DNA of 64,000 nt from Escherichia coli (GTDB taxonomy: Bacteria; Pseudomonadota; Gammaproteobacteria; Enterobacterales; Enterobacteriaceae): NCBI RefSeq assembly GCF_024298765.1, contig NZ_CP101210.1; one strand, given 5' to 3'. Below, piece by piece: positions 56,050 through 56,200 of the stretch; the stretch's first letter is position 1; every line of letters starts with the position of its first letter. Below the pieces are notes generated by a model that did no database searches, was not told the origin of the DNA, and saw nothing but the letters and a program-made list of their open reading frames with translations. The position numbers and the translations under genes were made by a program.

Positions 56050-56200
56050 AGTTGCCATTTGGACATAAGTGATTTCCTGAGAGGCAAGAAGCCAGCGAAT
56101 GGCTGGCTTCTATACTCGTCATACTTCAAGTTGCATGTGCTGCGTCTGCGTTCGTTCACCCCAGTCACTTACTTTAGTAAGCTCCTGGGGATTCACTCAC
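56050..56200. repeat. ERIC-like (enterobacterial repetitive intergenic consensus) element
   Basis: Contains the ERIC core rc caccccagtcacttac...gtaagctcctggggattcac and the internal gtcatacttcaagttgcatgtgctgcg segment, in the mdtL-tnaB intergenic region. Confidence 0.75.

Follow-up and report, generated by a model that had tools for sequence, protein, structure and literature searches.

The window analysed here, a stretch of 64,000 nucleotides of E. coli DNA, carries tnaA, tnaB and, next downstream, mdtL on its minus strand, and an ERIC element lies in the 258-bp spacer (55989–56246) between the tnaB stop codon and the mdtL start at 55988 (Table 1). The element is extragenic, begins 9 nt past the tnaB stop and directly adjoins a native hairpin that also follows tnaB. 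In strain 104, whose intergenic region is 100% identical, RefSeq annotates the two flanking genes under the same names as the original prediction. That prediction had placed an ERIC-like repeat at 56050–56200, an interval whose end cuts off the right arm of the element and whose start adds about 60 bp of unrelated sequence. A consensus scan of 55800–56400 finds no promoter-like or terminator-like site on either strand. A literature search on tnaB with ERIC and on the tnaB-mdtL terminator returned nothing relevant, and no report of this insertion was found. A weak Rfam match to the c-di-GMP-I riboswitch aptamer on the plus strand (55949–56059; 21 bits, gathering score 35, E = 0.058) overlaps the start and 5' region of mdtL in antisense and most likely arose by chance.

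Table 1. Features of the tna-mdtL locus in the window, with the two forms of the tnaB-mdtL junction.
Feature	Position	Strand or sense	Remarks
tnaA	57586–59016	-	
tnaB (low-affinity tryptophan permease), 415 aa	56247–57494	-	TAA stop at 56247–56249
8-nt junction AGTGGCTG (CAGCCACT in mRNA sense)	56238–56245		between ERIC and the base before the tnaB stop; replaces TTGAAGGA of empty alleles
Complete 127-bp ERIC, TA...TA	56111–56237	-	delimited by alignment with three other ERIC loci
Terminal inverted repeat arm TGCAACTCGAATTATTTAGAGTATA	56213–56237	5' arm in tnaB transcript	inverted repeat I1; conserved in all other copies
ERIC core	56153–56196	-	central inverted repeat CCCCAG...CTGGGG (I2) and ERIC2/ERIC1R primer sites
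Terminal inverted repeat arm TATACTCGTCATACTTCAAGTTGCA	56111–56135	3' arm in tnaB transcript	inverted repeat I1
Native tnaB-downstream hairpin AGAAGCCAGC-GAATG-GCTGGCTTCT	56087–56111	-	inverted repeat I3, 100% complementary
mdtL (MFS efflux transporter), next gene downstream of tnaB	54813–55988	-	
Closest empty E. coli alleles (L033, L038)		mRNA sense	TAA-A-TCCTTCAA-GAAGCC
Filled allele		mRNA sense	TAA-A-CAGCCACT-[ERIC]-GAAGCC

ERIC, or IRU, sequences are non-autonomous, palindromic miniature inverted-repeat mobile elements of 127 bp. The ERIC/IRU/RU-1 elements of E. coli and other enterobacteria were reportedly described by Sharples and Lloyd in 1990, by Hulton et al. in 1991 and by Wilson and Sharp in 2006. 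The boundaries of the tnaB-mdtL copy were set by alignment with ERIC copies from other E. coli genomes, located at yeiS-preT, ybhI-ybhJ and pgk-fbaA. Similarity to all three stops exactly at TATACTC...GAGTATA, beyond which the flanks are unrelated, and identity over the full length is 96.9, 96.9 and 95.3%, respectively, and 97.6% to the majority consensus of the three. The identification as an ERIC repeat is thus borne out, the alignment to this majority consensus far exceeding the 70% below which the original prediction was to be abandoned. Identity, boundaries and intact arms are those of a complete ERIC, which shares with the known ERIC/IRU/RU-1 elements its length, its terminal TA, its terminal inverted repeats, its ERIC1R/ERIC2 core and an extragenic position within a transcription unit. 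It departs from a typical ERIC in being rare, in its three private substitutions, in the replacement of 8 nt and in the presence of the same allele in non-coli Escherichia.

The canonical orientation of the element (ERIC2 forward, ERIC1R reverse) is on the minus strand, in the same sense as tnaB and mdtL transcription. The terminal arms, of 25 nt each, are 80% complementary, a TA is present at both ends, and the central inverted repeat occupies 56159–56190. The core motifs quoted in the original prediction are all present, with 0 and 1 mismatches to the primer-site sequences: GTGAATCCCCAGGAGCTTAC, a 20-mer of the ERIC1R complement, matches 56177–56196 of the minus strand with 0 mismatches (0.01 expected by chance), and the 22-mer of the ERIC2 primer matches 56153–56174 of the same strand with 1 mismatch (0.00 expected). 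The literature confirms the sequences of both primers, which 233 papers quote together. gtcatacttcaagttgcatgtgctgcg, which had been described as a central segment, is likewise present, but it belongs to the left terminal arm and not to the centre. The full 22-mer ERIC1R site has 2 mismatches, namely a TA at 56175–56176 that, together with a T at 56155, makes up the three substitutions private to this copy with respect to the three others. No E. coli locus holds another copy at least 99% identical to it, and the plasmid collection contains no copy with the private substitutions, except in one chromosome mislabelled as a plasmid. As a separate observation, the yeiS-preT locus of E. coli WP8-S17-ESBL-08 (L012, 401–606) carries a long-form ERIC with a 78-bp insert, rich in short palindromes, in its left half (GGTTATTCGGCCCATCC...GCGGATTTG), and other strains have a plain 127-bp copy at this locus.

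Rfam has no ERIC family as such, but its V_AS5 model (RF02818, Vibrio RNA AS5) aligns end to end (1–129) with 56115–56238 of the minus strand, taking in the ERIC core and both arms (47.1 bits, E = 2.8e-9). This score is below the gathering score of 96 bits, so that by the Rfam criterion the element stands outside the family. ERIC has been reported in Vibrionaceae in a review, and the V_AS5 resemblance probably reflects a Vibrio branch of ERIC-like repeats. One could instead read the full-length, minus-strand match as the mark of an independent small-RNA gene, V_AS5-like or Ysr49-like, rather than of a passive repeat. This we regard as very unlikely: 47 bits is far below the gathering score, the Ysr49 match (E = 3.1) was treated as chance, neither strand has a promoter- or terminator-like site, and the V_AS5 match is what shared ERIC ancestry would produce, ERICs occurring in vibrios too.

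The segment that the original prediction had taken for a divergent or interrupted left arm (ggcaagaagccagcgaatggctggcttc, 56087–56111) is a separate, native hairpin, and both arms of the ERIC are intact beside it. Its GC-rich stem is a perfect 10 bp (arms at 56087–56096 and 56102–56111), trimmed by the insertion from the 12 bp of the empty alleles, in every one of which, among those examined, the hairpin is found directly after the tnaB stop. As it is also present in ERIC-free alleles, the native hairpin is not part of the ERIC. The stem is maintained across Escherichia lineages, with a G-U wobble in one of them, and the structure probably forms the 3' end, or the terminator, of the tna operon. 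Its tail in the window is TTGCCTCTC, on which the consensus terminator scan makes no call. In the genome GCA_013817505.1 (L024, 6756–6889), where a G-C pair of the stem has become A-T by a compensatory change and a T5 tract is present (AAAAAGCCAGCG...CGCTGGCTTTTT), the hairpin resembles a canonical intrinsic terminator; the E. coli version is T-poor.

The ERIC is found at tnaB-mdtL in only 71 of 5,426 complete E. coli genomes, presence being called on a match covering at least 80% of the 258-bp spacer, and it is absent from 98.7% of them. The spacer of K-12 is a 131-bp empty site where no repeat is annotated, that of strain WCHEC050613 is empty and of 131 bp as well, and empty sites in E. coli range from 131 to 135 bp. 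A query representing a hypothetical product of precise excision matches the locus in 5,423 genomes: in the same 71 carriers the match is split, at 99% or more, and in the other genomes sampled it is a single one of 203–204 bp with at most 96.1% identity. A 30-mer spanning the ERIC end and the 8-nt flank occurs once in each of these 71 genomes and nowhere else, and the 258-bp spacer is 100% identical in all 60 carriers listed of the 71. The ERIC at ybhI-ybhJ, by comparison, is near-fixed, occurring in 5,330 of the 5,426 genomes. The filled tnaB-mdtL site is therefore a derived, rare allele in E. coli, and not the general feature of the mdtL-tnaB region that the original prediction had described. 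That a degenerate ERIC, divergent or interrupted in its left arm, should stand regularly between tnaB and mdtL is hardly credible: the core motifs expected of it are present, but so is a 127-bp element with both arms intact, the supposed arm occurs in ERIC-free alleles, and nearly all genomes lack the ERIC. The annotation is accordingly corrected from a broken ERIC to a complete ERIC followed by a separate native 3' hairpin.

Many of the carriers are avian isolates, including O78:H4 APEC, and one of the 71, APEC O2-211, is documented as ST117. The E. coli lineage that the insertion appears to mark is ST117-like and largely associated with poultry. The clean size polymorphism of 127 bp could serve as a simple PCR marker of this lineage, and in ERIC-PCR it gives carrier strains an additional priming site. 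Strain-specific ERIC loci are themselves nothing new, one review citing 14 extra loci in non-K-12 strains. The tnaB-mdtL site is a new locus of a well-known family, and it stands out as rare, apparently clonal in its distribution, non-canonical at its junction and present in two Escherichia lineages. One E. coli strain with the filled allele (GCA_027278425.1; L035, 1631–2328) has an IS1 transposase gene between a shortened tnaA (461 aa) and tnaB, so that its tna operon is disrupted.

In the loci with the closest empty E. coli alleles, tnaB agrees with the window over 1,248 nt (0 differences), and so does the remainder of the spacer. Relative to these alleles, the filled allele has 8 nt swapped for 8 other nt and gains the 127-bp ERIC, the difference in length being exactly 127 bp. 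ERIC insertion is reported in reviews to duplicate a TA, but a TA is lacking at the site in all sampled empty alleles, and the adjacent 8 nt differ too. The junction is thus not a clean TA duplication. That the 8-mer had been carried over from an E. coli donor ERIC locus was considered and rejected, as the 30-mer is found only at tnaB-mdtL and the flanks of the three other loci are unrelated. TAAGTGGCTG, which consists of the 8-nt junction (56238–56245) and the terminal TA, is 9/10 complementary to CAGTCACTTA of the ERIC core (56162–56171; inverted repeat I4). This match was noticed post hoc, with a chance probability roughly estimated at about 0.01, and the resemblance could be either a templated filler or a coincidence. 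TGGCTG is also found in the adjacent arm of the native hairpin. A third empty allele, of 135 bp and with an extra ATCA after the stop (TAAATCATCCTTCAA), is seen in L034 and L039, two E. coli loci with the same TnaB protein as the window; in both, the place upstream of tnaC that mnmE takes in other loci is occupied by a Toxin_15-domain gene on the opposite strand.

The same allele is found outside E. coli. A metagenome scan with the 22-mer of the right junction retrieved one contig (L016), whose gene order is that of the window and whose spacer is 259 bp, and the junction of ERIC end and 8-mer is absent from the GTDB species representatives. Over 3.6 kb (tnaB-tnaA-mnmE), the contig shares no more than 93.0% identity with any one of 5,424 complete E. 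coli genomes; compared with the window, it is 89–98% identical per kilobase, with 187 differences in 2,682 nt and flanks that differ by about 7%. Between 56098 and 56363 there are 2 differences (Poisson P of about 2e-6), and in the ERIC with its 8-mer there is 1 (Poisson P of about 9e-4). The tract shared with the contig covers at least 56111–56245 and at most 56098–56273. The general conservation of ERICs makes the argument from low divergence weaker within the element itself, and leaves unaffected the argument from the private ERIC substitutions and the 8-mer of the window, which are also present in the non-coli filled allele.

Further genomes of this lineage were obtained by exact-protein look-up. 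The members of the resulting group X are 98–99% alike and 92–94% identical to E. coli, and the group contains both filled (L016, L017, L018 and L023) and empty alleles (L025, L027, L029 and L030), the ERIC of L023 being identical to that of the window. A sister group Y, about 96% identical to X, and the more distant L024 are both empty. (T/C)CCTTCAA is common to the empty alleles of E. coli, X and Y, which indicates that the empty state is ancestral and that the filled allele has crossed a species-level boundary. Within group X, filled and empty alleles also differ in stop context (TAA-A as against TGA-T) and in the hairpin loop, and the states of the filled alleles are those seen in E. coli. 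The E. coli filled allele, for its part, has no foreign flanking SNPs. Our guess, from the X-Y split at about 96%, is that this non-coli lineage may correspond to the cryptic clades III/IV (E. ruysiae).

The presence of one allele in a lineage whose flanks are about 7% different points to transfer by short-tract recombination. We consider it likely that this complete ERIC/IRU MITE derives from one insertion spread by recombination, and that it is a near-neutral hitch-hiker of the 3' UTR marking a clonal lineage. The ERIC would have been inserted a single time and would then have moved between Escherichia lineages by short-tract homologous recombination, and not by repeated transposition. The possibility that the E. 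coli carrier had acquired a long tract of foreign DNA by recombination was rejected, its tnaB being identical to that of empty E. coli strains. The E. coli-like states of the group X filled allele, together with the lack of foreign SNPs in E. coli, make it more likely that the allele arose in a background resembling E. coli, or else in a third lineage outside the sample. As the private substitutions are shared by no other E. coli ERIC locus and no pre-insertion allele was found, transfer could have gone in either direction.

The insertion event itself can be pictured in several ways. It is possible, rather than probable, that a canonical, TA-duplicating insertion took place in an unsampled Escherichia lineage with the native sequence TAAA-CAGCCACT-TA-GAAGCC, and that E. 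coli and group X are both recipients by recombination. Such a scenario would account for the 8-mer, for the TA at both ends and for the three private substitutions absent from other E. coli ERIC loci, and the non-coli filled allele does carry flanking SNP states foreign to the empty alleles of its own lineage. The pre-insertion allele that it predicts, queried as a 23-mer (TAAACAGCCACTTAGAAGCCAGCC), nevertheless has 0 matches among 100,044 GTDB species representatives and in the JGI metagenome collection, where the junction scan that found one contig serves as positive control. In E. coli, likewise, no allele with the 8-mer and without the ERIC is found, the best precise-excision match among the 5,423 genomes being 96.1%, and the flanks of the E. 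coli filled allele are entirely free of foreign SNPs.

Alternatively, and we propose this tentatively, a de novo, imprecise and non-canonical insertion in an ST117-like E. coli ancestor may have exchanged 8 nt at the base of the hairpin, with later export to the non-coli lineage. The identity of filled and closest empty E. coli alleles outside these 8 nt is in agreement with such an event, as are the E. coli-like stop-codon context and hairpin loop of the non-coli filled allele, and the 9/10 complementarity of the flank to the ERIC core hints at a templated filler. However, with no E. coli ERIC paralogue having the private substitutions, there is no candidate source copy; a TA duplication would moreover be expected from what is reported of ERICs, and the 9/10 match, found after the fact, has its chance probability of about 0.01. 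The combination of the 8-nt replacement, the missing TA and the core-like filler might even reflect a non-transpositional route, through hairpin-targeted insertion or template-switch repair, although we consider this unlikely. If it were true, ERIC alleles would spread across Escherichia species mainly by recombination and not by transposition. It would also help to explain why, to our knowledge, no transposase has ever been tied to ERIC. A single spread insertion, whichever way it arose, bears on how ERICs move and leaves the established picture of these elements unchanged; it provides a well-resolved case of one MITE insertion allele common to E. coli and a non-coli Escherichia, with filled and empty forms of identical flanks available in both.

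The ERIC is expected to be transcribed within the tnaCAB 3' UTR, because tnaB and mdtL are co-oriented, the native 3' hairpin comes only after the element and the scan detected no promoter-like site. The RNA folding proposed along with the original prediction gives a long hairpin for the mRNA sense of the ERIC (-51.5 kcal/mol, z = -8.1), and -37.8 kcal/mol (z = -4.9) for the opposite strand. In the fold of the full spacer transcript (z = -4.9), the ERIC hairpin and the native hairpin stand side by side; in the cell's own transcript, the ERIC would accordingly be predicted to form a long hairpin next to a slightly shortened native one. RN|WUU is an RNase E-type motif, and a motif scan finds none in the mRNA-sense strand of the ERIC and three on the opposite strand, one of them, GAATT, in the part that would form its 3' arm. 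Because no such motif exists in the mRNA-sense orientation, the effect of the element on tnaAB mRNA and on mdtL read-through would be nil, or mildly stabilising or insulating.

Yersinia ERICs are said to modulate mRNA decay, a finding reportedly made by De Gregorio et al. in 2005. According to reviews, these ERICs destabilise the upstream mRNA through an unmasked RNase E site, in one orientation only, and an effect on mRNA stability is supported only for Yersinia. The tnaB-mdtL copy resembles them in its position in a 3' UTR near a stop codon, in its co-orientation with the flanking genes and in its predicted long RNA hairpin; it differs in lacking an RNase E-type motif in the mRNA sense. One may ask whether it could nevertheless act as a regulatory ERIC of this type, terminating ribosomes hindering the hairpin, exposing an RNase E site in the distal arm and lowering tnaAB mRNA relative to the downstream RNA. 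The orientation-dependent mechanism is described in reviews for ERICs near stop codons in Yersinia enterocolitica, and a start just 9 nt after the stop codon would suit it, but we find it improbable here. The three RN|WUU motifs are all on the opposite strand; the ERIC abutting the ybhI stop codon, at ybhI-ybhJ, lies in the opposite orientation to the tnaB-mdtL copy; the mRNA-sense strand gives the more stable fold of the two; and, from general knowledge of the ribosome footprint, a ribosome terminating 9 nt away would touch no more than the outermost base pairs of the stem.

Small, TA-flanked elements with terminal inverted repeats, co-transcribed and forming hairpins able to alter the fate of the transcript, are also known as Correia/NEMIS in Neisseria and as RUP and BOX in pneumococcus, but these are sequence families unrelated to ERIC and involve different nucleases (RNase III for Correia). 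For the near-neutral ERIC favoured here, the pair of filled and empty alleles provides a natural, isogenic-like test of what a 3' UTR ERIC does to tryptophanase mRNA stability, to indole and to mdtL read-through.

Beyond the insertion, E. coli strains diverge to an unusual degree at tnaB-mdtL: tnaB and mdtL of the window are 95.4 and 96.5% identical, respectively, to those of K-12 (L015). Several small polymorphisms segregate both in E. coli and in the non-coli lineages (loci L023–L032), namely the stop context (TAA-A or TGA-T), the loop (ATTC or ATTTC), CTCTCAGG/CTGTCAGG and CACTTATG/CTCTTTTG. Their occurrence in both groups suggests frequent inter-lineage recombination at tnaB-mdtL. In group Y, tnaB of L026 and L032 (5507–6753) is called as two open reading frames of 60 and 363 aa, and is probably a frameshifted pseudogene. 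L032 has, in addition, IS3-family transposase-like genes (Pfam HTH_28 and rve matches) between mnmE and tnaC.
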